From a bacterium (GTDB lineage: Bacteria; Lernaellota; Lernaellaia; Lernaellales; Lernaellaceae): DNA of 64,000 nt. Below, piece by piece: positions 4,041 through 49,452 of the stretch (its first letter is position 1; every line of letters starts with the position of its first letter). The position numbers were made by a program, and so were the translations under genes. The stretch lies in NCBI GenBank assembly GCA_036725605.1, contig DAIMDW010000001.1, positions 545,045 through 609,044 on the forward strand. The letters run 5' to 3'. The notes beneath the pieces are model-generated. The model saw only the letters and a list, made by a program, of their open reading frames with translations. It ran no database searches and was not told the origin of the DNA.

Positions 4041-5891
4041 TTACTCTTCCACCTCGATCTGATCCGGATAGGTGATCTTGATGTACATGTTGTCGCCGAA
4101 ATCCTGCTGGCAGGCGAATTCGGCTTCCTCGCCGTCGGGCCACACGACGCGCAAGGTGCACTCGCAGCTCATCGCGCCCAGGCCGAAGTGCTGTACGCGC
4201 GTGCTTTCCGAGTTGTAGTGGCCCTTGCTCGATTTCTTTTCGCGCATCAGCGTTACGTCGTCGGATTCAAGGTACAGCCGCGCGCCGATCGCGTCGCGGT
4301 TGATGTTCTCGCCGTCGCCTTCCAGCCGCACGGCCAACCAGCGGTTTTCCTGCCCGATGTCGTTGCGCAGCAGGAAATTCGGCCGTCCGCCGCCCAGGTC
4401 GCCCGCGCCGGTGAACAGGTCGAGGTCGCCGTCGTGGTCGATGTCGATCCAGATGTTGTTGCTGGTGCTCTTTGCGCGAATCCACACCGTATCGTCCGGA
4501 TCGTTGATGCCGCTGGCTTCGCCGAAGGATTGGAACGTGCCGTCATCGAGCTGCCGCCACAGGCCGAACCAACCTTTCATATCCCACTCGTAGTAGCGGT
4601 CCTCGTACTTTTTGTCGCGCGACAGGGAAAGGTCGAGTCGACCGTCGTTGTCGAAATCGACCATCGCGCCGTCAATGTCGCCTTCGTTGAAGATCAGGCC
4701 GCGCTCGAGGAACTCGTTGGTGAAGTAAAAGTCCTCGTCGTCGCCGCCGTTGATCAACAGTTGCGTCGGGTCCGACCATTTGCGCAGTTCGTCGGTGTTG
4801 GTCGCGTGCGAAATGGTGGTCAGGAAGATATCCAGGTCGCCGTCGTTGTCCACGTCGCCGCAGTCGATGCCGAAGCCGTTGCTGCCCACGTAGGTGCCCG
4901 GTTCCGCGCCGGGTTCGGGCGCGGTGCCGTGATCGGTGGTCACCAGGTAGTAGTTGCCGGTCGCCAGGCTGGCGAAGCCGCGCTCGACGGCCACGTTGGT
5001 GAAGTTGCCCTCGCCGTCGTTTTCCCACAGATGGTTCAGACCGTTGAGCGTCGAGACGCTGTAGGTCGACACGAAAATATCCAGGTCGCCGTCGTTGTCG
5101 TAATCGGCCGTGATGCACCCGTTGGTCGGCTGGGCAGTCTGGTCGGCCAGGCGGTCGGAGACGTCCTCGAACGTGCCGTCGCCGTTGCCGAAGTACAGCA
5201 GGTCGGTCGCGGCGTACATCGTGTGGCCGTTGCCGACGAACAGGTCGAGGTTCGCGTCGCCGTTGAAGTCGGCGAACAACGCGTTGCCCGCGTAGGTTTT
5301 GTAATTGCCGTCGACGCCCGAGTCGTCCAGGACGGTGAAATGTCCCTCGCCGTCGTTGAGCAATATTTCGCTGCGGTAATCCTCGTAGCGGAAGATATCC
5401 AACCCGGCGAACGCGTCCTGGTCGCCGTCGTTGTCCACGTCGCCGAAGGCGAAGAAGCCGGCCTGAATGTCGCGCAGGCCCGACTCGTCGCTGAAATCGG
5501 TGAACGTGCCGTCGCCGTTGTTGAGGAAAACGAGGTGTTCGAAGGGCACGCCGTTTTGCGCATTGGGGAACAGGCTGTGCATCAACAGGTCGTCGTAACC
5601 GTCGCCGTTGATGTCCGCGCTTTCCACCCGGGCGTGGTCGTTGCGCTGAATGTCTTCGGGCGGATCTTCATAGTAATTGTCCACCCGCATGCCGCTTTGG
5701 TCGGAGATGTCGACGAAGAAATCCGCTTCCGGCTCGACCGGATCGCTCGGATCGCATTCATAGTTGTCGTCGTCATCATCGTCGTCGTCATCGTCGTCAT
5801 CGTCGTCGTCATCGCACGAGCAGGCTCCGATGGCCAGCGACAGCGCGCCGCACAGCAACAACACCAAAAACAGTCGGCTCCAGATTTTCAT
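4041..5891 (-). CDS. Secreted FG-GAP/VCBS repeat lipoprotein with ASPIC/UnbV-like C-terminal domain (CRTAC1-like) and poly-Asp linker
   Basis: Signal peptide with LAIGAC lipobox, followed by a run of about 20 Asp. Multiple D-x-D-x-DG-x-x-D calcium-binding FG-GAP motifs occur (DVDNDGDLDIF, DYDNDGDLDIFV, DFNGDANLDLFV). The C-terminus (RDAIGARLYL...GHYNSES..FGLG) resembles ASPIC/UnbV. Confidence 0.75.
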   Translation of the reverse strand: MKIWSRLFLVLLLCGALSLAIGACSCDDDDDDDDDDDDDDDDNYECDPSDPVEPEADFFVDISDQSGMRVDNYYEDPPEDIQRNDHARVESADINGDGYDDLLMHSLFPNAQNGVPFEHLVFLNNGDGTFTDFSDESGLRDIQAGFFAFGDVDNDGDQDAFAGLDIFRYEDYRSEILLNDGEGHFTVLDDSGVDGNYKTYAGNALFADFNGDANLDLFVGNGHTMYAATDLLYFGNGDGTFEDVSDRLADQTAQPTNGCITADYDNDGDLDIFVSTYSVSTLNGLNHLWENDGEGNFTNVAVERGFASLATGNYYLVTTDHGTAPEPGAEPGTYVGSNGFGIDCGDVDNDGDLDIFLTTISHATNTDELRKWSDPTQLLINGGDDEDFYFTNEFLERGLIFNEGDIDGAMVDFDNDGRLDLSLSRDKKYEDRYYEWDMKGWFGLWRQLDDGTFQSFGEASGINDPDDTVWIRAKSTSNNIWIDIDHDGDLDLFTGAGDLGGGRPNFLLRNDIGQENRWLAVRLEGDGENINRDAIGARLYLESDDVTLMREKKSSKGHYNSESTRVQHFGLGAMSCECTLRVVWPDGEEAEFACQQDFGDNMYIKITYPDQIEVEE

Positions 5892-6001
5892 GTCCTTCTC
5901 CCGTCAATTCAGGTCGCATCCTCTTTAACATTCAATTTTGAATAGAGCAAACCCCTAGCCACGGCCGGTTGACTCGCCTGAATTTCGAAAAAAATGGAAA
6001 A

Positions 6002-6799
6002 CTACTCGATCGCCTGCAAGCCGTATGGCGGCGCGGCGTTGACCAGCACGCCCGGGCGACACTTGAGGCGCGCCTCGGTAAACTGCCGGTCTTCCATATG
6101 TGCCGAGAGCGTGTACTCACCCGGCGGAACGTTGATGAATACGACGCCGCCGTCGCCGGTCGTCTCTTCCAACGTACGCACCGGAATGTCGATGATCGTG
6201 CCGTTGGGCAACTCGAAAATCTGAAAGTAGAACGGCCCCTGCGTCGGCGGCAGTGGCGGATCGATCGTCACCGTCGCCCCGGCGATGCCGCTGGAAAACG
6301 GATTGCCGCCCGCTTCGGTCACCGTCGAGGCGATCTGGCACATGTTCGGATCCAGCGTCTCGAACAGGACCAGCGCCAACGCCCAGACGATCGGTCGCGG
6401 CGGCGCCTGCAAATGAAAATCGTCGATCGTCTCTTCGGTCAGTTCCACCGTGGCCGATTGCGTGGGATAAAAATCGCGATGTTGCGAAATCAGTGTCAGG
6501 TCGTCGCCGACCGCCAGGTTGTCGAAGGAAAATCGTCCTTGTTCATCGGTCGTCACCGCCGGGATTCTCGGCCGCTCGACGATCGAGATTTCCGCTTCCG
6601 GCAGCATGGCGAACGACCAATCGAAGCGCCAGACCGCACCGCCGGCCGCGGTCGTTTCGATAGATGAATGATGTCCGGATTTGCTTGTGGTTTGGCTCAG
6701 CGCAATATCGGCCCACTCGTCGCCGCCTTCGTTTTCGCCGCCGCACGCCGTCAGCAACAACATCGTGACAATCAAAATAAGTATCTTCGCCCGGTCCAC
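6002..6799 (-). CDS. Lipoprotein with carboxypeptidase-regulatory-like beta-sandwich domains (hypothetical)
   Basis: Signal peptide plus LLTACGG lipobox. PGEYTLSA-type strand motifs occur in two roughly 100-aa modules. Confidence 0.5.
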   Translation of the reverse strand: MDRAKILILIVTMLLLTACGGENEGGDEWADIALSQTTSKSGHHSSIETTAAGGAVWRFDWSFAMLPEAEISIVERPRIPAVTTDEQGRFSFDNLAVGDDLTLISQHRDFYPTQSATVELTEETIDDFHLQAPPRPIVWALALVLFETLDPNMCQIASTVTEAGGNPFSSGIAGATVTIDPPLPPTQGPFYFQIFELPNGTIIDIPVRTLEETTGDGGVVFINVPPGEYTLSAHMEDRQFTEARLKCRPGVLVNAAPPYGLQAIE

Positions 6800-6929
6800 T
6801 GCACACCCCTTTCCGGAACAACGGCGGTTCGCCTAAGGTACAAAATCCAAGCAAAGTCAGTCAAGAAAGATCGCACCCGCCGGCGGAAATTCCGGTATGA
6901 TGCGACCACAAACCGACGGAAAAGCGATC

Positions 6930-7412: not shown

Positions 7413-7467
7413 GCTTTTCTCCAACCTCGCCTTTCGCTACACTAGCGAAAAATCCCAAAGGATGCGG

Positions 7468-9288: not shown

Positions 9289-9322
9289 CGCATACAATCC
9301 GTCCGAAGGGGATCACGTCGGC

Positions 9323-25522: not shown

Positions 25523-25951
25523 ATGTTGAAAAAGAGTTCCTTGATCTTGTTCACGTTGCTCGCTTTTACCTTGTCGCTGCATCTGATCGCTTGCGAAGAG
25601 GACTGCGAGGATTGTGACTGCGATTGTGACGACGACGACGATAGCGCCGACGATGACGATGATGACAACAACTACAACTCGTGCGATCCCAACCAGGAAT
25701 GCGTCAACTGGTACGTCTCCTGCTGGGGCGAAGCCTTCTCCAGCTACGCGGCCGATTTCTGCGGCGTCTACCAGACTCAATTCAACCAGTATTGGGATAC
25801 CAGCAACGCTTGCGTCATCAACGCCGAATGTGAATTTTTCGGCTGCCTGCAAGCCAACCTCACCGATTGCATCGGCACGGATCAGACGCAGGTGCAAACC
25901 GAAATCGACGCCTGTTGGATGGTCTTCGAAGCGACCGCCAACGCCTGCTGA
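25523..25951 (+). CDS. Small secreted Cys- and Asp-rich lipoprotein (hypothetical)
   Basis: Signal peptide with LIAC lipobox, an acidic Cys/Asp tract CEEDCEDCDCDCDDDDDSADDDDDD, then a roughly 90-aa domain with 8 Cys. Confidence 0.5.
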   Translation: MLKKSSLILFTLLAFTLSLHLIACEEDCEDCDCDCDDDDDSADDDDDDNNYNSCDPNQECVNWYVSCWGEAFSSYAADFCGVYQTQFNQYWDTSNACVINAECEFFGCLQANLTDCIGTDQTQVQTEIDACWMVFEATANAC

Positions 25952-32583: not shown

Positions 32584-34074
32584 TCAGCAACCACACCCGT
32601 CGTCGTCATTGTCATCGTCATCATCATCATCATCGTCGTCGTCATCGTCATCATCGTCCGTCGCGTCGTCATCGATGGCGTCGTCATCGACGATATCATC
32701 GTCGACGACATCGTCGTCGCTCGCATCGTCGTCGACGGTGTCGTCATCGACCGGCACTTCCATCCATCCGGCGGTGGCCCGTTCCATCGTCACGCAATGC
32801 ACCGCCCCAAGCAGTTCGATGAGCACCTCGGAGTCGATGGGAATCACCTGCACATCGCGTCCCTTGGCGGCGTAAAAGTCCTCGTAGACCTGCAACGCGG
32901 CATCGTCCATGTCGATGTTGTAAATCGGCACCAGCACCTTGTCATTGAGAATCAGCGAATTGGTGTAGCTGCGAAACACCGTCAACTCGCCATAAATGCT
33001 GGAAACCGTGTACTCCGGCGGCATCGGAATACGAATGACGTTGAACGAATTGCCGTCCAGGTTGGTTTCGCCGGCGATCTGCGCGGCCATTTCCTCCAGC
33101 GCCGTGTAGTTGTGCGCCCCGGCCTGATACTGCCCGACGATCACATTTGTCTCGTCCAGCAACTTGGCGGACATATCGATGTGCGTGGTCGCTTCATCCT
33201 CCAGATGCGTAACCATAATATGCTTGGCGCAGCCCATATAATCGTCGAGCGCTTGCGCCAGATTGGCATAGGGCGTGGTGTGGTTGTGCAGCGCCAAACC
33301 GTCCGAGGTGAAACACGTTCCCTCGCCGTCACTCATGTAGTTGCCGCCCTCGAAATTCACGTTCCAGTCATAGGCCGCAATGCCGAACTGCGTAGCCAGC
33401 AACCCGGGCACGGCGTCGTCAATCGGTCGCCCCTGGTAGGTCAGATCGACCAACGATTGCACGGTGTCCTCGCCGGCTTCCTCCTCCAGGAAGATCGGAC
33501 CGTAATCGCGCGTCCAGATCGTCTGGGTGGCCACGGTCAGAATCTCGAAGTTGTCGCCGGTAATGCCCAGCGCATTGAGCGTATTGTTCAGTTGATTTTG
33601 TTGCCAGGCGTTATTAACCAACAGAAAAACGGTCACCGCCGGATCGCCGTCAAGCGTCTGGAGCATCTGGTTGAAAGTAACGCGCTCCCGGTCGTATCCC
33701 AACTCCACCGGATAATGGATGATCACGCCGCTCATGTGCTCGAACTCGGCCGGCGTGCGCACGGCAGCCGTGGGCGGCGTCTGCGGAAGCAGCGGCCGCA
33801 ACGGCGGCTCAAACGGTTGGACGCCCTGCTTCCTCAGCACGGCCGCGGCATAGACGAGTCCTTCGTCGTAGGTCAGACCGAGTTCGGCCAGATGTCCGTT
33901 GCGCTCCATCAAATTCGCATACACCGCCGGATACGCGGGCAGCGCCAACGGCAGGCCGACTTCGCTTTTATTCAAAGAAGACAAGGCACGCTCCAACGAC
34001 TGCTGGTCGGCCAGCGCGGGCACCGTCAACAAAGCGAAAATCAAGACGCAAACGACAAGGCGCAAAGGTTTCAT
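32584..34074 (-). CDS. Secreted agmatine deiminase / porphyromonas-type peptidylarginine deiminase family protein with C-terminal poly-Asp tail ending in GCGC
   Basis: GGAG RBS upstream. Signal peptide. TRDYGPIF, the DWNVNFEGGNYMSDGEGTCF block and the catalytic Cys region GAVHCVTM are all present. The C-terminus has about 60 aa of (DDDxV/A) repeats and then a D-run ending in DDDGCGC. Confidence 0.65.
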   Translation of the reverse strand: MKPLRLVVCVLIFALLTVPALADQQSLERALSSLNKSEVGLPLALPAYPAVYANLMERNGHLAELGLTYDEGLVYAAAVLRKQGVQPFEPPLRPLLPQTPPTAAVRTPAEFEHMSGVIIHYPVELGYDRERVTFNQMLQTLDGDPAVTVFLLVNNAWQQNQLNNTLNALGITGDNFEILTVATQTIWTRDYGPIFLEEEAGEDTVQSLVDLTYQGRPIDDAVPGLLATQFGIAAYDWNVNFEGGNYMSDGEGTCFTSDGLALHNHTTPYANLAQALDDYMGCAKHIMVTHLEDEATTHIDMSAKLLDETNVIVGQYQAGAHNYTALEEMAAQIAGETNLDGNSFNVIRIPMPPEYTVSSIYGELTVFRSYTNSLILNDKVLVPIYNIDMDDAALQVYEDFYAAKGRDVQVIPIDSEVLIELLGAVHCVTMERATAGWMEVPVDDDTVDDDASDDDVVDDDIVDDDAIDDDATDDDDDDDDDDDDDDDDNDDDGCGC

Positions 34075-35959: not shown

Positions 35960-36598
35960 TCATTCGAAAATCAGATAAAAATTGTTCAGCCAGTCGTCGA
36001 AATTAAAGGAGCCCGGCATCGGGGCGAAAGGACTGGGCGGTCCGGTGATGTCGGCGTCGTTGGCCATGCCCAAGTCACGCGACACTAAATAACCGTAGGT
36101 GTAGCCCACGCCGACGCCCTTGTAAACCACCTCGACGCCCAACTCCGAATAGGCATAGCCGGAATAGATGTCGTTGTAGCCGTGAAAACCGACGCCGGAC
36201 AGCGGCAGCGGAGTTTGCCCCGCGCCCACCGTGAAACGCGCCACCGGCCGCACCACGCCGCCCAGCAGACCGTGGTAGCGATAGGTGATCGACTGGCGCA
36301 TCATCGCCGTGCCCAGTTCATCGCCGAACAACGCATCCTGCGAGCCGGCATCGAGTACGCCGACGGTCTGCAGCGTATTCGCCCCCCACGCCAATTGATT
36401 GTAGTAAATGGTCCATTGCAGCGGTTGGTTCGACCACGGGGGCAGCACAGGCTGCGGCGCATTCGTGGTAATCGCCTGCGTTTCGAACGGATTGTTGGTG
36501 AGGGTGATATCCTCGTCGCCGCCGTCGTCATCCTCGGCCAGCGCGACGGTCAAGGGAAGCATCGTCAGCATCAACAAAATGGGGAGCGTTCGCCACAT
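35960..36598 (-). CDS. Secreted hypothetical protein
   Basis: Signal peptide (LTVALAEDDDGGDED) and a Gly/Tyr-rich C-terminal half. No recognisable catalytic motif. Confidence 0.4.
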   Translation of the reverse strand: MWRTLPILLMLTMLPLTVALAEDDDGGDEDITLTNNPFETQAITTNAPQPVLPPWSNQPLQWTIYYNQLAWGANTLQTVGVLDAGSQDALFGDELGTAMMRQSITYRYHGLLGGVVRPVARFTVGAGQTPLPLSGVGFHGYNDIYSGYAYSELGVEVVYKGVGVGYTYGYLVSRDLGMANDADITGPPSPFAPMPGSFNFDDWLNNFYLIFE

Positions 36599-38333: not shown

Positions 38334-39800
38334 ATGAAGCGTATCCATTCAATTACGGCTTTAATTTCCATCGTTCTTCTTGTCGGCGTAATCCTGGCGA
38401 CGCAATTATCGGCCGACGACCTCGAACTGCCTTTCCGGGATTTCGAAAGCGACGGCACGTCCGAAAACCTGATCGAGGATGACGGCGGCTTCGAGCAAAC
38501 GCTGCCGGTGGTTCCCGACAGCTACATCGTTTCGTGCATCGCGCCGAGCCATTACCCGTCGTTTCTGACCGAAATTACGGTCCGTGTCTCCAACTACTTC
38601 GGGCAGAACACGCAGATGGCCGTCTTCACCGACGTCGACGGCGACGGCCCCGACGGCGCGCCGGTGTGGACGTCCTCGACGCTGCAACTGCCTCACCGTC
38701 AGTGGTACAGCCGCAGCCTGATCGGCCAGCCGGGCATGGACATCCCCATCACCGAAGGTTCCTGGTGCATGGGCTTCAAGCAGCTCGATTTCCTGGTTTT
38801 CGAATTGCACGACAGTTCCAGTTCGCATGAACACACGTGGTCGGGCTCGCCGTCGGCGGGATGGCTGAAGCTCGACGCCATTTTCTTTCCCGGCAACGGC
38901 GCCTTCCGTGGCGTGGCCTATTACGCGCCCGAGTTGTGCGGCTGCTACATCGACGACGTTTGCTATGCCGAGGGCGATCTGCATCCCGACAACGACTGCC
39001 TGGTCTGCGATCCCGACGAGTCGGTCACCGACTGGACGCTCAACGACGGCGCGGCCTGCGACGACAACATCTTCTGCAACGGCGAAGACACCTGTCTGTC
39101 GGGCGTGTGCTCGCAACATGCCGGCAATCCGTGCCCGCTCGACGACGGCCTCTACTGCAACGGAACCGAAACCTTCGAGTGCATCGAAGCCACCGACGAG
39201 TGCGGTCACACGGGCAATCCCTGCCCGGTCGACGACGGCCTGTTCTGCAACGGCGATGAAACCGCGCAATGTTTCGAAGCCACCGACGAATGCGGCCACA
39301 CGGGCGATCCCTGCGAAGAGTGGGAAGAATGCATCGAAGCCACCGACGAATGCGTGGAACTCGCCGATGACGACACAGTCGACGACGACACGACCGATGA
39401 TGATACCGCCGATGACGACACGGCTGACGATGACACCGCCGATGACGACACGACCGATGATGATACCGTCGACGACGATACGGTCGACGATGATACCACC
39501 GACGACGATACGGCCGATGACGATACCGTCGATGATGATACCGCCGATGACGACACGGCCGACGACGACACCACTGATGACGACACCGCCGATGACGACA
39601 CGGCCGATGACGATATCACTGACGACGACACCGCCGATGACGATATCACTGACGACGACACCGTCGATGACGATTCCGCCGATGACGACGAAGATATCGA
39701 CGACGATGACGACGGCAGCGATTCGATCCTCGATGACGACGACGATGACGACCTGGATCGCGGCGGCGACGACGATGATGGCGGCGGCTGCGCCTGCTGA
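38334..39800 (+). CDS. Secreted protein with Cys-rich CNG-x-E-TC repeat modules and a long C-terminal DDDTx pentapeptide repeat tail ending in GGGCAC
   Basis: Signal peptide. Five repeats of C-x-DG-x-x-C-N-G-x-E-x-C (DDNIFCNGEDTC, DDGLYCNGTETFEC, DDGLFCNGDETAQC). About 22 tandem DDDTx units. Confidence 0.6.
   Translation: MKRIHSITALISIVLLVGVILATQLSADDLELPFRDFESDGTSENLIEDDGGFEQTLPVVPDSYIVSCIAPSHYPSFLTEITVRVSNYFGQNTQMAVFTDVDGDGPDGAPVWTSSTLQLPHRQWYSRSLIGQPGMDIPITEGSWCMGFKQLDFLVFELHDSSSSHEHTWSGSPSAGWLKLDAIFFPGNGAFRGVAYYAPELCGCYIDDVCYAEGDLHPDNDCLVCDPDESVTDWTLNDGAACDDNIFCNGEDTCLSGVCSQHAGNPCPLDDGLYCNGTETFECIEATDECGHTGNPCPVDDGLFCNGDETAQCFEATDECGHTGDPCEEWEECIEATDECVELADDDTVDDDTTDDDTADDDTADDDTADDDTTDDDTVDDDTVDDDTTDDDTADDDTVDDDTADDDTADDDTTDDDTADDDTADDDITDDDTADDDITDDDTVDDDSADDDEDIDDDDDGSDSILDDDDDDDLDRGGDDDDGGGCAC
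39367..39696 (+). repeat. 15-nt tandem coding repeat (gac gac gac acc gcc variants), about 22 copies, encoding DDDTx
   Basis: Periodic GATGACGACACSRCC units are visible directly in the sequence. Confidence 0.85.
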
Positions 39801-39862: not shown

Positions 39863-41110
39863 TTACCAGGTGGCGGTGACCCTATTGCCGTAGTGGTCCG
39901 ACAGCCGCGACTCCACCTCGTCATCGTCCACCGTCAGCATGATCGGCTCGGTAAAAACACGCTCCGCCGCGAAATCCGGCGTACCGAATCCGCCGAAGAA
40001 CAGGTGGTCGATGATCGTATCGTTCGTGTCCTCGTCGTTGAGCGGATTTTCCGAACAGTATGTGCACAGATCCGGATGCTGCGCCACGTACGGATCGGTC
40101 ATCCCGGCGGCGATCAACGCGGCGTAGTTGGCCGGAAATTCATCCGGATCGCCCCCGACGCCCGGTCCGTTGTTGAAATCGCCCATCAACACCACCGGCT
40201 CGCCGTCCGACGTATCCTCGACCCAATCCAGCAACGCGTCGATCTGCGCCGCCTGTTCGGCCTCATAGGACGGATAATCGCCGTTGTAAGGCAAAATACT
40301 GATCGCCGCGGTCAGGTGCGTGCAATACAAATGAACCGGCCCGGATTCAGTCTGCACCTTGGCGTGCAGCGCCACGCGCACGGTGAGGAAGAAATCGAGT
40401 TGCAGCATTTCGGTGTCGGTCAGTTCCAGATTCGACGCCAGAATCAATCCGTTGGACCCGGTGTACGACAACGGCGGCGGATTCGGATTGGTGCAGTAAT
40501 CGACCATGTCGTCGAAGGGCTGGTCGATCTGGCTGGCCAGACACTCGATGCAGTCGAAGCCGGTCAAGATCAGCGGCAACAGGCAATTGTCGATCACGCA
40601 ATCCAGGAGACCCTCGACCTCGTTGACGTCGCAATTGGTTTCCGCACAGGAAATCAGGTTGTCCAGATCGCCGCAGCGCGCTTCGCTTTCCGGCGGCTGG
40701 TCGGCGAAATCCTCGATGCTGTTGTGCTTGTAAATGTACGGCAGCACGTCGGCCAGCGCGTCAACCATGCCGTCACGATCGTCCTCGTACCAGACCTCCT
40801 GCAGGCACAGCGCGTCGACGTCAAGTTCCGGCACCGCCTCGTAAAGCTCGGGCAGGCGCTCCTCGGCCAGCGGCACGAAACCGTAGGCCAGCCCCGCGTT
40901 GTAAGTGGCGAAGGACATCGTTGTGCTCGTCGGCGTCGTATCGTCATCGTCGTCGTCGATGTCGTCGTCGGCCGTGTCATCGTCGGTGGTATCGTCATCG
41001 ACCGGCGTGCCGTCGTCGTTGTCGTCATCGTCATCGTCGCCGCAGGCGAGCGGCATCATTGCCATTATAATAACTAAAATTAACAGAACAAAACCATGGT
41101 TAGTTTTCAT
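39863..41110 (-). CDS. Endonuclease/exonuclease/phosphatase (EEP) family lipoprotein with N-terminal D/T-rich acidic linker
   Basis: GGAGGAGG RBS upstream. Signal peptide with LAC lipobox followed by GDDDDDDNDDGTPVDDDTTDDDTADDDIDDDDDD. EEP motifs: LCLQEVW (N-terminal Mg-binding Glu), GDFNNGP, and C-terminal SDHYGN. Confidence 0.65.
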   Translation of the reverse strand: MKTNHGFVLLILVIIMAMMPLACGDDDDDDNDDGTPVDDDTTDDDTADDDIDDDDDDTTPTSTTMSFATYNAGLAYGFVPLAEERLPELYEAVPELDVDALCLQEVWYEDDRDGMVDALADVLPYIYKHNSIEDFADQPPESEARCGDLDNLISCAETNCDVNEVEGLLDCVIDNCLLPLILTGFDCIECLASQIDQPFDDMVDYCTNPNPPPLSYTGSNGLILASNLELTDTEMLQLDFFLTVRVALHAKVQTESGPVHLYCTHLTAAISILPYNGDYPSYEAEQAAQIDALLDWVEDTSDGEPVVLMGDFNNGPGVGGDPDEFPANYAALIAAGMTDPYVAQHPDLCTYCSENPLNDEDTNDTIIDHLFFGGFGTPDFAAERVFTEPIMLTVDDDEVESRLSDHYGNRVTATW

Positions 41111-41276
41111 GACCTCCTCCCATTTTTTATGTTCTTCGGATTCCTGCCCCTTTACTCTCCGACAAATCACGGCGCTTGGCAACTGGGCAAGCGAAAACGA
41201 GCTGTCCGATTCCTGTTGAAATTGAACCAGTTATGCATTAAAAATGCGCGAAACCGATCACCCGTGGAAGGGAAAA

Positions 41277-42581: not shown

Positions 42582-42672
42582 CCTGAAGTGTATCCAGCCC
42601 GCTTGTAAGTGATTGCATTAGTGATCCTTTTTGTGTAATCCTTCCCGAAATTTCTATGAGATGGAAGGATTC

Positions 42673-44001: not shown

Positions 44002-44056
44002 TGGACCGGGCACAACCAAAATGATTGTCCCTTTTCCGGATGTTGTATCCGCGATT

Positions 44057-44155
44057 CGGTGGCACTGATACGCCGAACGCAGTGAGGCTTATCAGTGCCT
44101 GCCATGAACACTGATAAACTCGTTCGCCTTGCTCGCTCGTGTATCAGTGCCACCG
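44057..44155. repeat. About 100-nt nested inverted-repeat element (candidate MITE core or structured sRNA)
   Basis: Three inverted-repeat pairs form one long interrupted stem: GGTGGCACTGATAC/GTATCAGTGCCACC, CCGAACG/CGTTCG, and GCTTATCAGTG/CACTGATAAAC. Confidence 0.45.
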
Positions 44156-44193
44156 CGTCTTGGTCAGGCTGTTTCGAGGAAACAACCAAAAAT

Positions 44194-44218
44194 GAAAAAG
44201 GCGGCCGAAGCCGCCTGA
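44194..44218 (+). repeat. Direct repeat copy 2 (GAAAAAGGCGGCCGAAGCCGCCTGA)
   Basis: Exact duplicate of 43977..44001. On the minus strand it reads TCAGGCGGCttcgGCCGCCTTTTTC, a canonical terminator placed 4 nt after the stop of the ArfB-like gene. Confidence 0.8.
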
Positions 44219-44222
44219 TTCA

Positions 44223-44576
44223 TCACCAAGCGCCGTCCGCCGGCTCGCGACGGACGGCTTTCTTGGCCGCTTGTTTTTTCTTCTCCTCCAACCGCTTTTC
44301 CTTGGCGGCGCGCGACGGCTTGGTCGGCTTGCGCTCGACCGGCACGAAGTTCAACTCTTCGAGCTTCGCCGCCAGGCGCTCGTACGCCACGTCCAGGTTG
44401 CGTGCCTGGCTGCGGCGTTCGACGGCCGTCACGATCACGCCGGACGGCAGATGGCGCAGCCGCACGGCCGTTTCCCGCTTGTTGCGATGCTGACCGCCCG
44501 GGCCGGTCGCCTTGAAAAACTCCACCTCGACTTCGCGTTCCAGCGTTTCACGGTCGGTGGCAAAGGGTTCGTTCAT
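44223..44576 (-). CDS. Peptidyl-tRNA hydrolase ArfB-like (RF-1 domain, GGQ motif) protein
   Basis: ATGPGGQHRNKRETAVRLRH GGQ loop and a basic C-terminal tail (KPTKPSRAAKEKRLEEKKKQAAKKA). Its ATG overlaps the stop of the upstream gene (TAATG). Confidence 0.65.
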   Translation of the reverse strand: MNEPFATDRETLEREVEVEFFKATGPGGQHRNKRETAVRLRHLPSGVIVTAVERRSQARNLDVAYERLAAKLEELNFVPVERKPTKPSRAAKEKRLEEKKKQAAKKAVRREPADGAW

Positions 44577-46711
44577 TATTTCGTTTCGCCATCCCAAGCG
44601 AAGACGAAGTCCAGTTCGGTATCGCCTTCGATCAAAATGTTGTTGCAATACTCCAGGTGGTCGTCGACGTTGATCATGGCCAGGTTCATCGAGCCTTCGT
44701 TCACCGGCAGACTGTAATAGCCCGTTGCATCCCAAATGATCGAAGTGATGAACATGAACGGTTCGCTTTGGTCGGAACTGGTGATGTGTTCCAGCGTGTT
44801 GGTTCCCATGATCGTCGTCGGCACCGCCGGGGTCACGCCGTCGCTCATGAAAATGTTGCCGGTCAGATGATGCATCGTCAGATTGAAATTCTGCGTCTGT
44901 TTGTCTTCGCTAAGGGTGATTTCGGCGAACTCCTCGTCCTCGATAAAGAAGTAGGTGTCAAAGCCGATGATGGCGTCCATCGACATGGTCAGCGTGTAGC
45001 TGCCCGGCAAGGCGGTGACCGAATAGCTGCCGTCCGAGTCCATTTCGCCGTAATACTCGATGCCGTACTGATCGACCAGATAAAGGTCGCCGAACACGAA
45101 CAGCGAACTGAAGAACAACAGCGGCGTCGTGTCGTTGATCGTGATCGTGCCTTCCAGCGTGGCCGTGGTGCCCACGAACTGGTAATCATGCGTCAGGGTC
45201 TCGCTCACGACAACGCCCGCTTCGCGTTCGCGAACCAGGTCTTCCTCGTAATACGGATTGTAGTACAGGTCATACGTGCCCGCCGGCAGCATCAAGTTAT
45301 AGACGCCGGTCTCGTCGGTGTAGTTGTACGCCTCGAAGGTCGCGCCGTCGGCCACCGATACGGCCTTGACCAGCACATCCTCCAGCGTCGCGCCCTCCGG
45401 ATCGGTGATCGTGCCGGTGACTTCGATCAACGGAACCTCGATCAACACATTCTCCTTGGTCGGTGCGGTCACTGTAATCTGCTGCGTGTCGTCGAAATAC
45501 TTGGTGTACTGATACACATTGTAAGAAATGGATCGATAATCGATGACCACATCGTAGGTGCCCGCCGGCAGCACGATGTCCACGAAGCTGTATCCGCCCT
45601 CGAATTCGGCGACATAGAAATCGCTGCCCGCGGTGAAGGTCATCGAGCCGCTGGCGCCCAAGCCCAGATCGTAGTACCAGGACGAGCCGTCGTTGGTCAA
45701 TTTCACCCGCGTTTCATAGCCGGTGACGGGGAACTGGAAGTCGTGATTCATGTGCGTGGTCACGGCCACCGGGTTCTCGCTCGCCTGCGGCAATGACGTG
45801 CTCAACAACGGCGAATAGCGGAACGTATAATTGTCGAAAGCTGGTAAAAAGACCATGTAGGCGTCGGCTTCCATGGTGAATTCGACTTCCAGGGCAAAGG
45901 TCGTCGGATCCTCTTTAACCTCATCGCCGCCGGTGATCAGAATGGTTGTTCCTTCCACCGGATTTTCTTCCGGATCGGTAATCGAACCATCAATTGAATA
46001 CAGTGTCAGGGCGATGTCCTGCGTCACCGTTTCGGCGCCGACCACCAGGTCCTCGACAATGTAGGAGTTGCGGTAGGTCCAGAAGAAGTCCTCGCCGTCG
46101 TAAACCAGAATTTCGATTTCGACGTTGTAGGTGCCCGCCATCACGTACGGTGCGCGATAGGAACCGTCGGTGTCGACGTTGGCCAGGAAGGAATCGCCTT
46201 TGCTTTCGCTCCAGAATTTCAGCATCACATCGGCTTGGTTGTAGGCGGCGAAATACGTCGTGATGGGCGTTTCGTTGACCGTCACCGCGCCGGTGACAAG
46301 CACGCCCTCGGGCTCGTGCAAAGTCGTATCGTCGTCGCCGGTGTCATCGTCGGTCGTATCGTCGTCGGTGGTGTCATCGTCGGTGGTGTCGTCGTCGGTC
46401 GTATCGTCGTCGGTTGTGTCATCGTCGGTGGTGTCATCGTCCGTGGTGTCATCGTCCGTGGTGTCGTCATCGGTCGTGTCATCATCGGTTGTATCATCAT
46501 CCGTTGTATCGTCGTCGGTCGTGTCGTCGTCCGTGGTGTCGTCATCAGTGGTGTCGTCGTCATCGTCGTCGCTCGCGTCGTCGTCGGCGTCATCGTCATC
46601 GGACGGGCAACGCGGACAGTCGTCGTCATCGTCGTCGCAGCCGAAAGCGCCCGCCAACAGCGGAATCAACAACAATGACAAACAAAGCATCAGGTAAACC
46701 GATTTCTTCAT
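44576..46711 (-). CDS. Large lipoprotein with N-terminal (DDDTT)n repeat linker and multiple carboxypeptidase-regulatory/Cna-B-like beta-sandwich domains
   Basis: AAGGAG RBS. Signal peptide ending LAGAFGC, then CDDDDDDCPRCP and about 17 DDDTT units. Downstream are repeated GTYxV/GSYTL strand motifs in roughly 90-aa modules. Confidence 0.55.
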   Translation of the reverse strand: MKKSVYLMLCLSLLLIPLLAGAFGCDDDDDDCPRCPSDDDDADDDASDDDDDDTTDDDTTDDDTTDDDTTDDDTTDDDTTDDDTTDDDTTDDDTTDDDTTDDDTTDDDTTDDDTTDDDTTDDDTGDDDTTLHEPEGVLVTGAVTVNETPITTYFAAYNQADVMLKFWSESKGDSFLANVDTDGSYRAPYVMAGTYNVEIEILVYDGEDFFWTYRNSYIVEDLVVGAETVTQDIALTLYSIDGSITDPEENPVEGTTILITGGDEVKEDPTTFALEVEFTMEADAYMVFLPAFDNYTFRYSPLLSTSLPQASENPVAVTTHMNHDFQFPVTGYETRVKLTNDGSSWYYDLGLGASGSMTFTAGSDFYVAEFEGGYSFVDIVLPAGTYDVVIDYRSISYNVYQYTKYFDDTQQITVTAPTKENVLIEVPLIEVTGTITDPEGATLEDVLVKAVSVADGATFEAYNYTDETGVYNLMLPAGTYDLYYNPYYEEDLVREREAGVVVSETLTHDYQFVGTTATLEGTITINDTTPLLFFSSLFVFGDLYLVDQYGIEYYGEMDSDGSYSVTALPGSYTLTMSMDAIIGFDTYFFIEDEEFAEITLSEDKQTQNFNLTMHHLTGNIFMSDGVTPAVPTTIMGTNTLEHITSSDQSEPFMFITSIIWDATGYYSLPVNEGSMNLAMINVDDHLEYCNNILIEGDTELDFVFAWDGETK
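46325..46575 (-). repeat. 15-nt tandem coding repeat encoding DDDTT, about 17 copies (plus strand shows GGTGGTGTCATCGTC units)
   Basis: Near-perfect periodicity is visible in the sequence. All three plus-strand frames give low-complexity ORFs, which are artefacts. Confidence 0.85.
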
Positions 46712-46763
46712 CTTCCCACTCCTTGCGAAGGTTTCCAAAAAATCTGGTTGGCCGTATTATTAT

Positions 46764-48467
46764 TTATTTATTGATGATAATCAAATCGATGCGCGTGTTT
46801 TTCAATTGCCCGTTCGGCGTGTCGTCGGCCGTGATCGGCACCGTGTCGCCCATCCCTTCGGCGGTCAGACGCGCCGCATCGATTTTTTGGCTCAGCAGAT
46901 AATTGCGCACCGCCTGCGCCCGCGCTTCGCTCAACGCCTGCGCCTCGGTCACCGCCGAGGAAACGTGCCCCTCGATCCGCACGGCCACGGTTGGATATTC
47001 CTGCAGCAATGCCGCCAGATCGGCGAGCATCGTTTTGTCGTAATCGGACAGGTTCGAGCCGCGCGGACCGTCGAAGGTCAGCGCCGCCGGCAGCACGAAC
47101 TGCCCCTCGAACATCATCACGCCGCTCGGCTTGCGCGCCAGCACCACTTCGGGCACGCCGTCGTCGTCGAGGTACCCGTTAAAGGTTTCCGGCTCCAGCG
47201 GCGCGCCGTCGAGGTTATCGGGCACCTGGTCCTCGTCGCTGTCGACGCTCAGCGGATTGGTGCGCAGCTCGCCGACTTCCTGCGCGTCCGAAAGCGTGTC
47301 GCCGTCGCTGTCGATCTGGCGCGGATTGGTGCCGTACAGACGCACTTCGGCCGCGTCCGACAAGCCGTCGCCGTCGCTGTCGGCCTGCGTGGGATCGGTG
47401 CCGTATTGTTTGACCTCGATGCCGTCGGACAAGCCGTCGCCGTCGCTGTCCGGGTTGGCCGGGTCGGTTTTGAACAGCCGCGTTTCGTCGTAGTTGGTCA
47501 GGCCGTCGCGGTCGGAGTCGTCGGTGCGGCTGTCGGCCCCGGCCATGGCCGAAACGGCCTTCGGCTCACGATCGAGTTCCGGCCAGGTGACGCCGATGGC
47601 CGCAAAGCCCCGATACACCGGATTGCCGATGCCCGCGTTGATGCCCATGCCGCCGCCGGCGGTGAAATGCATCGGTCCGGCAAACGCCCGCACGGCGACC
47701 AGCGCCTCGGCGGGGAATTCCGCATCCAGATTTTCCACCTGGTAATCGACCGTGCGCCCGTAAATCTCGGCCAGAATATCCAGGTGCTTGTGCGCCATGA
47801 TGCTCACGCCCGCACCGACCTCCGCCCGGCCGGACGGATCGAAGCCGCTTTCGTCGTCGCCCCGGTTTCCCATATACAGATAACCGCCATTAACGACGAT
47901 GTTCACGCGCTCGAACCGCTTGTCCACCGCCAGGCGCACGCCCGCGTTGGTCGCCTCCGTGCCGAAGTAATGATCCGGATCACCGCTGGGAAATTCGCCC
48001 AGGCCGATCAGCGCGATGCCGATCGAACCGGGCCGGTTTCGCAACAAACGGAACTTCATCGCGCCGCGCAGATCGCCCAGGCCCGCGCCGCTTTCATCGC
48101 CCGTGTCGGGGAAATCCAGGCCCGTGTCGATGTCCATGTCCTTGCCGGAAACCGAGTTGTAGCTGCCGGCGAAACCGAACTCGGCGAAATTGAACAGACC
48201 GATCGAGCCGCGCAATTCGGCGGTCAGCATCTGCTCGACGATCTTGAATTCCTCGTCGTTGCCGGCGAACTCGATGGTAAACGGATCCTGGGCGAAGTTG
48301 GCCGTCGTCGCGAAGCCGAATTGTCCGAAGGCCGGCACGTTGGAAGAATACAACGTCACCAGGTTGTCCACGCCGATCGCCGGCTGAAAGTTTTGCACGT
48401 CGATCGCCCAGGCGGCCGAACCGCCCGCTATCGTCAACAACGCCAGTATGATGATTAGTTTCTTCAC
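46764..48467 (-). CDS. OmpA-family outer-membrane protein with thrombospondin type-3 (Ca-binding) repeats (GTG start)
   Basis: AAAGGGGA RBS plus GTG. Signal peptide, N-terminal beta-barrel-like region, six D-x-D-x-DG-x-x-D TSP3 repeats (DSDGDGLSDGIE...), and a C-terminal OmpA_C domain (TVAVRIEGHVSS...NRRIDLIII). Confidence 0.75.
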   Translation of the reverse strand: MKKLIIILALLTIAGGSAAWAIDVQNFQPAIGVDNLVTLYSSNVPAFGQFGFATTANFAQDPFTIEFAGNDEEFKIVEQMLTAELRGSIGLFNFAEFGFAGSYNSVSGKDMDIDTGLDFPDTGDESGAGLGDLRGAMKFRLLRNRPGSIGIALIGLGEFPSGDPDHYFGTEATNAGVRLAVDKRFERVNIVVNGGYLYMGNRGDDESGFDPSGRAEVGAGVSIMAHKHLDILAEIYGRTVDYQVENLDAEFPAEALVAVRAFAGPMHFTAGGGMGINAGIGNPVYRGFAAIGVTWPELDREPKAVSAMAGADSRTDDSDRDGLTNYDETRLFKTDPANPDSDGDGLSDGIEVKQYGTDPTQADSDGDGLSDAAEVRLYGTNPRQIDSDGDTLSDAQEVGELRTNPLSVDSDEDQVPDNLDGAPLEPETFNGYLDDDGVPEVVLARKPSGVMMFEGQFVLPAALTFDGPRGSNLSDYDKTMLADLAALLQEYPTVAVRIEGHVSSAVTEAQALSEARAQAVRNYLLSQKIDAARLTAEGMGDTVPITADDTPNGQLKNTRIDLIIINK

Positions 48468-48486
48468 GCCAGTCCCCTTTTCCGGC

Positions 48487-49452
48487 TCACTCGCACGGAT
48501 CGTCCGGAATCTTGAAACCGTAGGCTTCCAACTCGGCAACCTCGAAACTGTACTTGCCGGTGAATACCGCGTTCGGCCGGTTGCTTTCATGCAGGAAAAG
48601 AAACACCCAGCGCCCTTCCACCGGAGCATCTTCCAGATCGATGCTGTTGTTTTGGATGTCCAGGTCCGCCGCCTGCTCGACGGTTTCCAACAACACGTAA
48701 CCGTAGTCGGCCGGGTCCTCGACTCCCAGTTCATGAGGCATCTTGGCCACGTTGTCGTTGGTGTTCAGATAAACGTCGAACTTGGTGCCGTACTCGTAAT
48801 CGCCGGACAGGGCATCGCGCCCCCAATGGATTTCGACGCGGTTGATCCAGTATTCCTGCTGCATCTTCACGCCGATCCACTGCGGCTGGTAATCGGCGCC
48901 CTCATTGATCGGATTGGTCGTGTTTTCCCACCAGGTGAGATAGTTGCCGTCGATCGCCTTGTCGGCGGTGTTGTTCGGCTTGGTGGAACTGGTACTACTG
49001 ACCTCGACCGTGGAACTCAACGAATAATTGTCGGTGTGTTGCTCGATGACGACCGATGAACTGTCGCTGCGATTGCCCGCGGCGTCCTCGGCGACGAACT
49101 GCAAGGTGTTCACCACCTCCGGCTGCAACGCGACCTTCACGCAAAATTCGCCGTCGGCGTTCGTCTGCGCTTCCGCGTCGGCCAGCCCGCCGGTCACGTA
49201 GATCAACGATCCGGCTTCGGCGGCGCCGTGAATGCTCTGATACGACAATCCCGTGGGGCTGGTCGGATCGTCCACCTCCGGCGCATCGGGCGGCGTGGTG
49301 TCGGGCGGACCGTCATCATCATCGTCGGGCGCGGCGGTGTCGTCATCATCGGCGATGGGGGCATCGACTGTGGAAGAAGTGTCGCAAAAGAAAAGCGGCG
49401 TGCACATCAGCAACACAAAAACCAGCAGAAGGATAGACCGGCCTGCGTGCAT
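48487..49452 (-). CDS. Secreted protein with acidic D/P/T linker, Ig-like domain and F5/8 type C (discoidin) domain
   Basis: Signal peptide, then DDDDTAAPDDDDDGPPDTTPP. C-terminal AIDGNYLTWWEN...WIGV...I.RVEIHW is typical of discoidin domains. Confidence 0.55.
   Translation of the reverse strand: MHAGRSILLLVFVLLMCTPLFFCDTSSTVDAPIADDDDTAAPDDDDDGPPDTTPPDAPEVDDPTSPTGLSYQSIHGAAEAGSLIYVTGGLADAEAQTNADGEFCVKVALQPEVVNTLQFVAEDAAGNRSDSSSVVIEQHTDNYSLSSTVEVSSTSSTKPNNTADKAIDGNYLTWWENTTNPINEGADYQPQWIGVKMQQEYWINRVEIHWGRDALSGDYEYGTKFDVYLNTNDNVAKMPHELGVEDPADYGYVLLETVEQAADLDIQNNSIDLEDAPVEGRWVFLFLHESNRPNAVFTGKYSFEVAELEAYGFKIPDDPCE

Follow-up and report, generated by a model that had tools for sequence, protein, structure and literature searches.

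Acidic tracts beside the terminal cysteines of exported proteins and a candidate helix-free C-terminal anchoring tag in a Lernaellota lineage

We examined a window of 64,000 nucleotides (the whole stretch of DNA that was analyzed) from a metagenome-assembled genome (MAG) that originated in an anaerobic digester, an anoxic habitat (NCBI locus tags PKW95_). Relatives close to this MAG include MAGs named FEN-1099 (= Ca. Lernaellota) by their submitters, and other related MAGs carry the submitter label "Deltaproteobacteria bacterium." A first-pass annotation had described recurring acidic tracts in seven exported proteins, and all were present: translation confirmed 7 of 7 open reading frames (ORFs) with their tracts (Table 1). 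In a six-frame scan of the window, every Asp run fell in the true frame of one of the seven genes, apart from one DDDD at 57652-57663. The maxima were 16 consecutive Asp residues and 21 DDDxx units, and chance is therefore no explanation for the tracts.

Table 1. Genes with acidic tracts, C-terminal tags, and further acidic exported proteins in the window.
Feature	Coordinates	Strand	Anatomy	Evidence
FG-GAP/ASPIC lipoprotein	4041..5891	-	lipobox ...AIGAC-SC followed by an Asp run of 16 residues (5760-5813)	translation, Asp-run scan
Small Cys-rich lipoprotein	25523..25951	+	lipobox LIAC, then EEDCEDCDCDC DDDDDSADDDDDD; Asp runs 25628-25672	
Secreted PAD_porph-family deiminase	32584..34074	-	signal-peptidase-I-type signal ALA|DQ; C-terminal acidic tract 32599-32748	
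Deiminase C-terminal tag G-C-G-C	32587..32598	-	TGA stop 32584-32586	
Secreted Cys-repeat protein with an N-terminal domain before the repeats	38334..39800	+	CNGxETC-type Cys repeats ~38930-39360	
Cys-repeat protein C-terminal tag G-G-G-C-A-C	39780..39797	+	TGA stop 39798-39800	
EEP (endonuclease/exonuclease/phosphatase-family) lipoprotein	39863..41110	-	lipobox PLAC, then GDDDDDDNDD...DDDTTDDDTADDDIDDDDDD (40934-41038)	Pfam Exo_endo_phos
711-aa lipoprotein, CarboxypepD_reg domain	44576..46711	-	lipobox FGC, then DDDDDD...; Asp tracts 46322-46636	
Exported Big_6 + F5/8-type-C (discoidin) protein	48487..49452	-	D/T/P-rich N-terminal linker; Asp runs 49312-49326, 49339-49350	
Further lipoprotein	60416..61279	-	acidic N-terminal linker AAGC-GEYEDTDTDEDS, without Asp run	
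Further exported protein	35960..36598	-	acidic mature N-terminus ALA-EDDDGGDEDITL	

The tracts occupied two mirror-image settings. In the N-terminal setting, a lipobox Cys was followed by Gly or Ser, an Asp run, and a DDDxx spacer, and in the C-terminal setting a signal-peptidase-I protein ended in a DDDxx spacer, an Asp run, G-C-[G/A]-C, and the stop. Signal peptides and lipoboxes were assigned by heuristic rules rather than by a trained predictor; compared with the pattern [LVI][ASTVI][GAS]-C, LIAC and IGAC were canonical, PLAC and FGC were loose, and LFFC of the discoidin protein was atypical and doubtful. Relatives of the EEP lipoprotein had the lipoboxes LPFAC or LPLGC. The FG-GAP/ASPIC lipoprotein matched FG-GAP_3 (1e-27) and UnbV_ASPIC in Pfam, and none of the seven tract proteins matched TSP3_bac or RTX models. 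TSP3_bac did match the neighboring OmpA protein (46764-48467).

The deiminase and the Cys-repeat protein formed the C-terminal setting in the window; in a correction to the first-pass annotation, their signal peptides are of the signal-peptidase-I type and have no lipobox. In the deiminase (PAD_porph, 4e-46, residues 106-431), the tract consists of six DDDxx units and then an Asp run. Its stop (DDDGCGC*) is genuine, and the next gene, encoding a PALP-family enzyme, begins 4 nt later. The Cys-repeat protein has 21 DDDxx units (39366-39692) with more Asp runs to 39779, a terminator-like hairpin lies 3' of its stop, and the tag was kept in 4 of 4 full-length members of its cluster. No hydrophobic segment followed either tag in any frame. 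When the ORFs of 60 aa or more in the window were screened for a CxC or CC ending, these two were the only called genes found, the other eight being short ORFs outside the gene calls.

Tracts went with export and lay next to a terminal Cys; they were not equally frequent in cytoplasmic proteins. In the window, 7 of 27 genes with a signal peptide or membrane segment carried a tract, and none of the 17 genes lacking a signal peptide did so (Fisher p=0.03). The same held in ~580 kb of loci from related MAGs, which were chosen by the tail pattern itself and from which tag-bearing genes were left out for this count (39/148 exported versus 2/140; p=9e-11). Both of the nonexported carriers look like miscalled starts. 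In the related loci, an Asp tract was present in 25 of 47 nontagged lipoproteins and began 1 to 5 residues past the lipobox Cys in 16 of these 25, with Gly at position +2 in 10 of 18. The acidic region had a median length of 44 aa at the N terminus and 43 aa at the C terminus.

The repeats are kept at the level of the peptide, not at that of the DNA. They had been described as near-perfect 15-nt DNA repeats, which does not hold, the units showing only 74 to 84% matches (TRF). In the array of the 711-aa lipoprotein (16 units, 15 of them DDDTT), the 15 identical DDDTT units are written in 13 different 15-mers, and exact identity at a lag of 15 extends over no more than 23 nt. The suggested variation in repeat length was real but modest. 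Among proteins >90% identical, strain variants of the Cys-repeat protein (478, 488, 494, and 504 aa) differed solely in the number of DDDxx units, short tracts varied by 1 to 2 aa, and that of the EEP protein varied by 0. Length differences among close relatives of the small Cys-rich lipoprotein were confined to the acidic tract, and indels among relatives of the discoidin protein were located in the linker. Because the units are 15 nt long, changes in copy number stay in frame and produce no on/off switching, and the phase-like part of the suggestion fell away. We likewise rejected slipped-strand contingency repeats of the phase-variable kind, as the units are only 74 to 84% identical and the changes never shift the frame.

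We scanned DNA across GTDB for the pattern D4-x(0-5)-G-C-[G/A]-C-stop, which matched at least 98 loci. Among the matches listed, in-frame tails (at least 97, at at least 88 loci) occurred only in nine related MAGs, two of which were named FEN-1099 or FEN by their submitters, and the 10 matches in other taxa were out-of-frame chance matches. The tracts thus appear specific to one uncultured lineage, as first suggested, as far as the scan reached into the collection. The richest related MAG had at least 25 tail loci, and a single 22-kb locus held four tail proteins and three Asp-tract lipoproteins. The DNA pattern had no match in IMG/VR viral contigs.

Tails in the related loci read ...D(n)-[D/S/G]-G-C-G-C, and >50 tag-bearing proteins were found in protein databases. 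Of 79 database proteins with an acidic C terminus, 77 had a Cys within the last 8 residues, 71 had at least two Cys, and 30 had three, with CxC the dominant form. G-C fell within the last 6 residues of 10 of the 12 incidental genes with a C-terminal Asp tract, and 56 of 120 homologues retrieved via other regions of the Cys-repeat protein ended in G-x?-C(C)-[GAS]-C. The tag is conserved independently of how its carriers were found. No Pfam or NCBIfam model matched the tag, and we found no published description of it in the literature.

The tag is modular. Fifty-five tail proteins matched at least 49 Pfam families, among which peptidases, phosphatases, and propellers predominated (including peptidases M14, S8, C1, and M28, trypsin-like peptidases, purple acid phosphatase, Kelch, BNR, and PKD). 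It is also nearly exclusive with a lipobox: tails occurred on 54 signal-peptidase-I proteins versus 4 lipoproteins (odds ratio among Asp-tract genes, 0.056; p=3e-8). One of the four proteins that carry both, a 65-aa ORF (L067), consists of a lipobox, an Asp linker, and GGGCGC, and nothing else.

Within one family, the two anchors were exchanged. One form (L012:4261-5844 and L089) has a lipobox and an N-terminal tract and no tail, whereas the other (L015, L024, and L050) has a signal-peptidase-I signal, a C-terminal tract, and GCGC; the forms are homologous (blastp, 6e-66; 32% identity over 444 aa). Homologues of the deiminase showed what can stand at the position of the tag. Eight of the nine closest ended in an Asp tract and GCGC, ACGC, SCGC, or GCCG. 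At the same position, more distant homologues had G-C-S-C, a helix, and an Arg cluster, a bona fide MYXO-CTERM (P0158, P0168, and P0190 pass the TIGR03901.2 cutoff with 21.9 to 24.6 bits), and others had Por_Secre_tail (PF18962, the type IX secretion C-terminal domain) or dockerin. Because the Gly/Cys ending is modular, nearly exclusive with a lipobox, exchanged with it in one family, and equivalent in position to such signals, the comparison lends strong support to the first-pass idea of an uncharacterized sorting signal or a putative acylation signal.

We propose, with about even confidence, that the acidic tracts are one modular polyanionic tether and that the end tag is a helix-less, Cys-type surface-anchoring signal, with the chemistry of the Cys predicted. 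A disordered acidic tether would sit between the folded domain of an exported protein and a terminal Cys that serves as the attachment point. The first class would be ordinary lipoproteins (signal peptide, lipobox Cys, Gly/Ser, Asp run, DDDxx repeats, and domain), in which the Asp run could act like the motifs it matches, which divert lipoproteins from the default Lol route to the cell surface. In the second class (signal-peptidase-I signal peptide, domain, DDDxx repeats, and Asp run), G-C-(C)-[G/A/S]-C at the free C terminus would correspond to the GCGC of MYXO-CTERM, the gene itself already lacking the helix and Arg cluster that are normally cut off by myxosortase. The terminal Cys would carry a modification, most probably a lipid, and a spacer would hold the protein on the cell surface, a spacer with a median of ~43 residues. 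Covalent modification, surface localization, and the export route are thus predictions of this model. Since the tag has neither a transmembrane helix nor an Arg cluster, it lacks the step that would retain the protein at the inner membrane until lipidation, and we know of no alternative to the helix-based holding of MYXO-CTERM before lipidation. The window had no sortase, CPBP-family protease (myxosortase), rhomboid, or type II secretion (T2SS) gene, and in the related loci no nontail family recurred beside tail genes and no recurrent neighbor was sortase-like. Three Acyl_transf_3 genes flank the tail genes of the window and did not recur at ~90 other tail loci. We counted two further observations against anchoring: the norm of at least two Cys (71/79) also suits a metal or disulfide role, and four proteins have both lipobox and tail.

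One alternative, which we consider unlikely, is that the tail is a module for binding metals or minerals, with poly-Asp for Ca2+, Mg2+, Fe, or minerals and CxC or CCxC thiolates for Zn, Ni, Cu, or Fe-S. The tails would then attach enzymes noncovalently to LPS bridged by cations, to exopolysaccharide, or to sulfide minerals, or would serve to scavenge metals in anoxic sludge. CxC and CGC motifs do bind metals, as in metallothioneins and the CXXCGC site of HypB, and the multiple Cys of most tails (at least two in 71/79, three in 30/79), their extreme charge density, and the anoxic digester habitat are consistent with such a role. However, it leaves unexplained the spacer after the lipobox Cys, the near exclusion of lipobox and tail, their exchange within a family, and the sorting signals of homologues at the tail position, and the tracts match no known Ca-binding repeat (TSP3 or RTX).

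It is decidedly improbable, in our judgment, that the tails are disulfide or metal-bridged hooks, pairing with one another or with a lipid-anchored adaptor so that secreted enzymes are anchored indirectly or form surface networks. The 65-aa ORF would make such an adaptor, three other proteins also combine lipobox and tail, and CxC is the dominant form of the tail, but only one such adaptor was found among at least 97 tails, a reducing habitat disfavors disulfides, and the anchor exchange and MYXO-CTERM equivalence suit direct anchoring more simply.

Highly doubtful, too, is a role of the Asp run and GCxC as a signal by which T2SS or another system recognizes proteins to be moved across the outer membrane, a signal that is removed or left unmodified and anchors nothing. 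The cargo consists of typical exo-enzymes, and type IX secretion C-terminal domains stand at the same position in homologues. To our knowledge, though, T2SS substrates generally have no linear C-terminal signal, and the equivalence with lipobox-anchored forms would go unexplained. Nonadaptive low-complexity expansion by replication slippage can hardly account for the tracts: copy number does differ among close relatives, with indels clustered in tracts, but this reading is contradicted by the positional and synonymous-site evidence, as the tracts are strictly placed beside the terminal Cys of exported proteins only, the amino acid sequence is kept although its synonymous codons are shuffled, and hundreds of proteins share an unvarying end motif.

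Several known systems resemble the proposed tether and anchor in part. On the lipoprotein side, acidic residues adjoining the Cys that bears the lipid direct proteins to the surface or into the T2SS route (PMC5080379, PMC6222051, PMC12802150). The lipoprotein export signal (LES) of Bacteroidota (C-X-K-(D/E)2 or C-S-(D/E)2) places acidic residues at +3/+4 after the acylated Cys of degradative-enzyme lipoproteins, as do the window lipoproteins, with C-G-DDDDDD, C-DDDDDD, and C-S-C-D16. Unlike the LES, the tracts comprise 5 to 16 Asp plus up to ~100 aa of DDDxx, belong to another phylum, and have a mirror C-terminal version; the likeness is one of sequence. The Pseudomonas "GDD" Lol avoidance signal and the Gly/Asp motif of surface lipoproteins that depend on T2SS (GspN) (PMC12802150) have in common with the proteins described here a G-D-D at positions +2 to +4 counted from the lipobox Cys, but the tracts described here reach far beyond these short motifs; MYXO-CTERM proteins are likewise proposed T2SS cargo. 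Outer membrane lipoproteins of Escherichia coli have a disordered linker directly after the lipidated Cys (10.1101/2021.01.05.425367); such linkers are not known to consist of polyanionic repeats or to have a counterpart at the C terminus.

At the C terminus, the closest likeness is to MYXO-CTERM (TIGR03901; myxosortase MrtX; Myxococcota). Both are C-terminal Cys signatures (GCGC) on Sec-exported proteins, and MYXO-CTERM likewise occurs dozens of times per genome on surface proteins, after a disordered region and often after Cys-rich repeats (TraA). Unlike MYXO-CTERM, the tag lacks a transmembrane helix and an Arg cluster, the stop standing directly behind the Cys motif, is preceded by poly-Asp, and belongs to FEN-1099/Lernaellota, not Myxococcota; window proteins, isolated tails, and P0137 gave no match to TIGR03901.2 (cutoff, 20 bits). 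Rab-type prenylation at a C-terminal CXC or CC offers an analogy, with the Cys motif at the very end of the protein and no CaaX-protease step: Rab tails would relate to Rce1-processed CaaX proteins as the tag does to MYXO-CTERM, which is processed by the Rce1-like myxosortase, although Rab prenylation takes place in the cytosol of eukaryotes and draws on prenyl donors. In MYXO-CTERM, the generic motif is GCGC with an invariant Cys required for processing, and lipidation is proposed to precede myxosortase cleavage distal to the Cys and then T2SS export (10.1101/2023.06.07.544157; PMC11980579). The encoded end of the tag resembles the product of that cleavage, and by its sequence the tag looks like a relative of the MYXO-CTERM surface-sorting tag, one that lacks the membrane helix and is as yet undescribed.

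The window lies on a 361-kb contig of JGI metagenome 3300010350, and its proteins are identical to those of an NCBI MAG (locus tags PKW95_). All seven open reading frames (ORFs) that the first-pass annotation had listed as carrying acidic tracts translated as it stated, and a Pfam search confirmed that their products are mutually unrelated (see table). In a six-frame scan of the window, Asp runs occurred only in the true frames of these seven genes, plus one DDDD. Five of the seven proteins have a lipobox-like signal peptide followed by the acidic tract within 1 to 12 residues (class 1; the lipobox of the Big_6 protein is doubtful). The deiminase and the Cys-repeat protein have a signal-peptidase-I-type signal and a C-terminal tract (class 2), and they end in DDDGCGC and GGGCAC, respectively. 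We call the C-terminal Asp tract with its G-C-[G/A]-C end the tail, or tag. The stop codons of both genes are genuine, and no hydrophobic segment is encoded downstream. A recoded stop or selenocysteine after GCGC was ruled out, the 3' DNA being the next gene or a terminator. An AlphaFold model of 38334-39368, built on a 7-sequence alignment, had a mean pLDDT of 41, too low for use.

Features of the window (bare coordinates) and of loci from related MAGs (L numbers), with Pfam families where matched
Position	Strand	Feature	Family or architecture
		Tract protein	FG-GAP/ASPIC
		Tract protein, small, Cys-rich	No family
32584-34074		Tract protein, deiminase	PAD_porph
38334-39800		Tract protein, Cys-repeat	No family
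		Tract protein, EEP	Exo_endo_phos
44576-46711		Tract protein, DDDTT array	CarboxypepD_reg
48487-49452		Tract protein	Big_6 + F5/8-type-C
57652		Single DDDD	
41-1693	-	550-aa protein	N-terminal TIR domain (TIR_2, 1e-11) + right-handed beta-helix/NosD repeats
195-571		138-nt tandem repeat encoding the repeats of the 550-aa protein	Lower-GC region
7462-9288	+	608-aa membrane protein	No Pfam match
9323-11170	+	615-aa membrane protein	No Pfam match
36654-37739		Membrane acyltransferase	Acyl_transf_3/HGSNAT-like
41244-42581		Membrane acyltransferase	Acyl_transf_3/HGSNAT-like
42661-44001		Membrane acyltransferase	Acyl_transf_3/HGSNAT-like
44223-44576	-	117-aa protein	RF-1 domain
46764-48467	-	OmpA/TSP3 protein	OmpA family with bacterial TSP3 repeats
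60416-61279	-	Acidic lipoprotein	No Pfam family
60584-61149		Five tandem 39-aa repeats of the acidic lipoprotein	117-nt period
L067:1181-1399	-	65-aa ORF	Lipobox signal peptide, Asp-rich linker, GGGCGC
L080:753-1922	-	Glycosidase-like protein	Ends GGSGGCGG, hydrophobic stretch, RRKK
L010	-	Echo tail	
L014:143-271	+	Echo tail	
L057	+	Echo tail	
L059	+	Echo tail	
L076:5286-5402	+	Echo tail	
L080:535-636	+	Echo tail	
L101	-	Echo tail	

Simple gene calls for the window and ∼580 kb of related loci were classed by a heuristic test for signal peptides and lipoboxes. Among genes without a tail, an Asp tract was found in 25 of 47 lipoproteins, in 19 of 126 other signal-peptide or membrane proteins, and in 2 of 157 genes without a signal peptide, both of which probably have wrong starts. 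With the window genes omitted, the tract was present in 39/148 signal-peptide or membrane genes versus 2/140 genes without a signal peptide (Fisher p = 9e-11). The earlier proposal of a lineage-specific tether on exported proteins was right in its main lines, and the pattern extends far past the window.

The lipoprotein and tail arrangements mirror each other. In 16 of the 25 tract lipoproteins, the tract begins 1 to 5 residues past the lipobox Cys (consensus, C-G/S-DDDDD), and in tail proteins the pure Asp run directly adjoins G-C-G-C; the median length of the acidic region is 44 aa in the former and 43 aa in the latter. By the heuristic calls, 54 tail proteins were of the signal-peptidase-I type versus 4 with a lipobox, and the odds ratio of lipobox against tail among Asp-tract genes was 0.056 (p = 3e-8). 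The 65-aa ORF at L067 consists only of a lipobox signal peptide (IIAC), the linker, and the Gly/Cys end, and it is possibly a doubly anchored peptide or adaptor.

The C-terminal tag is widespread, no Pfam or NCBIfam model covers it, and literature searches returned no description of it. The suggestion of an uncharacterized Cys-type C-terminal signal was likewise right in its main lines. We listed 120 homologues of the Cys-repeat protein, found via its N-domain, Cys repeats, or Asp repeats and having many different architectures. An acidic stretch followed by G-x?-C(C)-[G/A/S]-C, no more than 2 residues from the C-terminus, was present in 56 of them, and one sub-type ends in WPEGxVTGGCCGC. Among database proteins whose C-terminus is rich in acidic residues, 77 of 79 have a Cys within the last eight residues. 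We scanned GTDB at the DNA level, with one genome for each species, and the pattern D4-x(0-5)-G-C-[G/A]-C-stop matched at least 98 loci. Among the matches listed, at least 88 loci with at least 97 in-frame tails came from nine MAGs (including "FR-FEN-1099-1" and "HK-STAS-FEN-2"; NCBI label, "Deltaproteobacteria bacterium"), two of which had at least 25 and at least 19 loci. The 10 other matches listed (Enterovibrio, Dietzia, Lachnospiraceae, and others) were out of frame and due to chance, and the tag is thus restricted to this lineage among the matches listed. The pattern had no match in IMG/VR, and a protein search with a 66-aa tail as the query scored 0 of 210 candidates. Proteins of DAINPV, one of the tail MAGs, are 84 to 93% identical to those of the window, which places the window organism in the same group; the name Ca. 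Lernaellota has been given to FEN-1099 (PMC9324843). In 55 tail proteins, 49 Pfam families were represented, with peptidases, phosphatases, propellers, and PKD domains predominating.

One protein family occurs in both forms. Two MAGs encode a lipobox form, in which the Asp tract is N-terminal and the C-terminus is plain, and in three other MAGs the same domain has a signal-peptidase-I signal and a C-terminal Asp tract with GCGC (blastp, 6e-66; 32% identity over 444 aa). Among the nine closest relatives of the window deiminase (34 to 88% identity), eight end in an Asp tract with GCGC, ACGC, SCGC, or GCCG. More distant secreted homologues have G-C-S-C, then a hydrophobic helix, then RRR, and three of these exceed the cut-off of the curated MYXO-CTERM model TIGR03901.2 (a myxobacterial surface-sorting tag); still others have a dockerin or a type IX secretion domain (Por_Secre_tail). 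The position of the tag is therefore one that cell-surface sorting signals hold elsewhere, and the tag shares its Cys motif with one of them. Together, this anchor swap and the deiminase relatives point to anchoring; against it stands the fact that the tag has no helix to hold it in the membrane. Three other deiminase homologues (P0151, P0152, and P0157) have helix-less Cys endings without poly-Asp context (...SSGCSCAFID and ...AAGCSCATVAF, each then a stop), and these may be short-tailed derivatives of MYXO-CTERM-like signals in further lineages. By eye, the end of the glycosidase-like protein at L080, from the same lineage as the tag, resembles a Cys-type sorting signal with all three parts, but it matches none of the NCBIfam C-terminal models.

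We propose that both classes would be exo-proteins tethered at the surface, in which the polyanionic DDDxx array would serve as an extended spacer, the pure Asp run adjoining the terminal Cys would determine sorting, and that Cys would be the attachment point. In class 1, attachment would be through the classical N-terminal lipid; in class 2, it would be through a C-terminal Cys modified in some way. We give this mechanism as a whole roughly even chances. A more specific form, which we advance tentatively and consider rather doubtful, is that FEN-1099/Lernaellota have "mirror-image lipoproteins," Sec-exported enzymes anchored via a lipid or other covalent group on the Cys of G-C-x-C-COOH, without a transmembrane segment or sortase-type cleavage. 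If true, such anchoring would be the bacterial and extracytoplasmic equivalent of Rab-type CXC lipidation, and the tag would be a naturally "pre-cleaved" MYXO-CTERM in which the Cys-modifying step stands isolated.

A further argument against the proposed mechanism is the lack of an enzyme candidate. No gene for a sortase, a CPBP protease, or the T2SS is present in the window. The recurrent neighbor families of tail genes (4 to 14 members) all bear tails, and tail-free families have at most 3 members. Genes for three membrane acyltransferases, including a pair of paralogues with 68% identity, flank the window's two tail genes; we dropped the idea that such Acyl_transf_3 genes modify the tail because they do not recur at ∼90 other tail loci.

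Among rival readings of the tail, binding of metal or mineral by poly-Asp and CxC is unlikely, a "hook" that holds an adaptor by a disulfide or a metal is distinctly so, and a tail that is purely a secretion signal is slightly harder still to credit. Non-adaptive slippage is very improbable, being contradicted by the position of the tracts and by the synonymous sites.

The repeats were not near-perfect at the DNA level, as had been claimed, since TRF gave matches of only 74 to 84%. The array of the CarboxypepD_reg protein has 16 units, 15 of which are identical DDDTT peptides; it uses 13 different 15-mers, and at a lag of 15 nt exact identity extends over at most 23 nt. Because the units are identical while synonymous positions are scrambled, selection acts on the peptide. 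In the 90% cluster of the Cys-repeat protein, members of 478, 488, 494, and 504 aa differ only by whole DDDxx units, and another tail protein from the same MAG differs by seven units from one relative and is elsewhere 100% identical. Short tracts have indels of 1 to 2 residues, every one inside the acidic tract, and the EEP protein has no indels among its relatives. All copy-number changes are in frame, so the variation is length polymorphism and not the phase-like variation suggested in the first pass. An exact 30-mer flanking the DDDTT array had no match in a metagenome scan, and a protein-based metagenome search with this lipoprotein found no relatives, its own 90% cluster having a single member.

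Seven tail genes, all from the MAGs DAIPLW and DAINPV, share a further element that we call the echo tail. Directly 3' of ...DGCGC-stop (TAA or TGA) is a conserved ∼40-nt ACGATTGAGCGnAGCGAAATCCCGCC-nnnn-GGCGGGA with a hairpin, followed by 0 to 10 Asp codons, GGC TGC GGn TGC, and a second stop. It is in frame with the first stop in 6 of 7 (54 to 87 nt), reading xKRLSxAKSRQRR(D)nGCGC and a stop, and its left-hand part varies in 3-nt steps. This could reflect stop-codon readthrough or a small insertion with target duplication. An Rfam search gave chance-level matches only, and the element is absent from the window. Within the window, the product with the TIR domain could be a defence-type protein, and the neighboring 608- and 615-aa membrane proteins have similar N-termini and are possibly paralogues. 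The TraB model NF033763 and the OmpA/TSP3 protein can be aligned from end to end (6e-25) and are similar in architecture; the protein was rejected as a TraB orthologue at 87 bits versus a cut-off of 700.

Runs of acidic residues are reported to destabilize translating ribosomes, especially close to the N-terminus (10.1101/2021.02.02.429294; 10.1101/2022.01.27.477990). Despite this, many proteins in the lineage have 5 to 16 consecutive Asp at approximately residues 25 to 45, which poses a challenge for translation. The RF-1-domain protein is possibly, by its length and domain, an ArfB/YaeJ-type ribosome-rescue factor. Its gene shares 1 nt with the stop codon of the gene for the 711-aa lipoprotein with 15 DDDTT units; the overlap is intriguing given this destabilization, and it may be coincidence. 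The tag also offers a simple predictor of the surface proteome in an uncultured phylum of polymer degraders (digesters, anoxic lakes).

To our knowledge, every described prokaryotic C-terminal sorting signal has three parts (motif, transmembrane helix, and basic cluster) and is processed by a dedicated membrane protease. The tag retains the Cys motif alone, yet it is found on dozens of exo-enzymes per genome, and it would achieve surface display in a new way. MYXO-CTERM is such a tripartite signal; its signature is generically GCGC, and its processing requires the invariant Cys. In the current model, an enzyme not yet identified (PMC11980579) lipidates the Cys, myxosortase cuts just distal to it, and T2SS then takes the protein to the surface (10.1101/2023.06.07.544157; PMC11980579). 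The window tags equal this signature but end there; they lack two of the three defining parts and fail the HMM, and they are therefore not members. They look like the post-cleavage MYXO-CTERM end, directly encoded. Because the tag separates Cys chemistry from proteolysis, the Cys-modifying step of MYXO-CTERM could become easier to study. The Asp run beside the lipidated Cys in class 1 resembles the Bacteroidota lipoprotein export signal (PMC5080379, PMC6222051), the Gly/Asp motif of T2SS-dependent surface lipoproteins, and the GDD Lol-avoidance signal of Pseudomonas (PMC12802150). We regard the tag and the tracts as variants of signals of known kinds, namely C-terminal sorting signals with a Cys and acidic motifs that sort lipoproteins.
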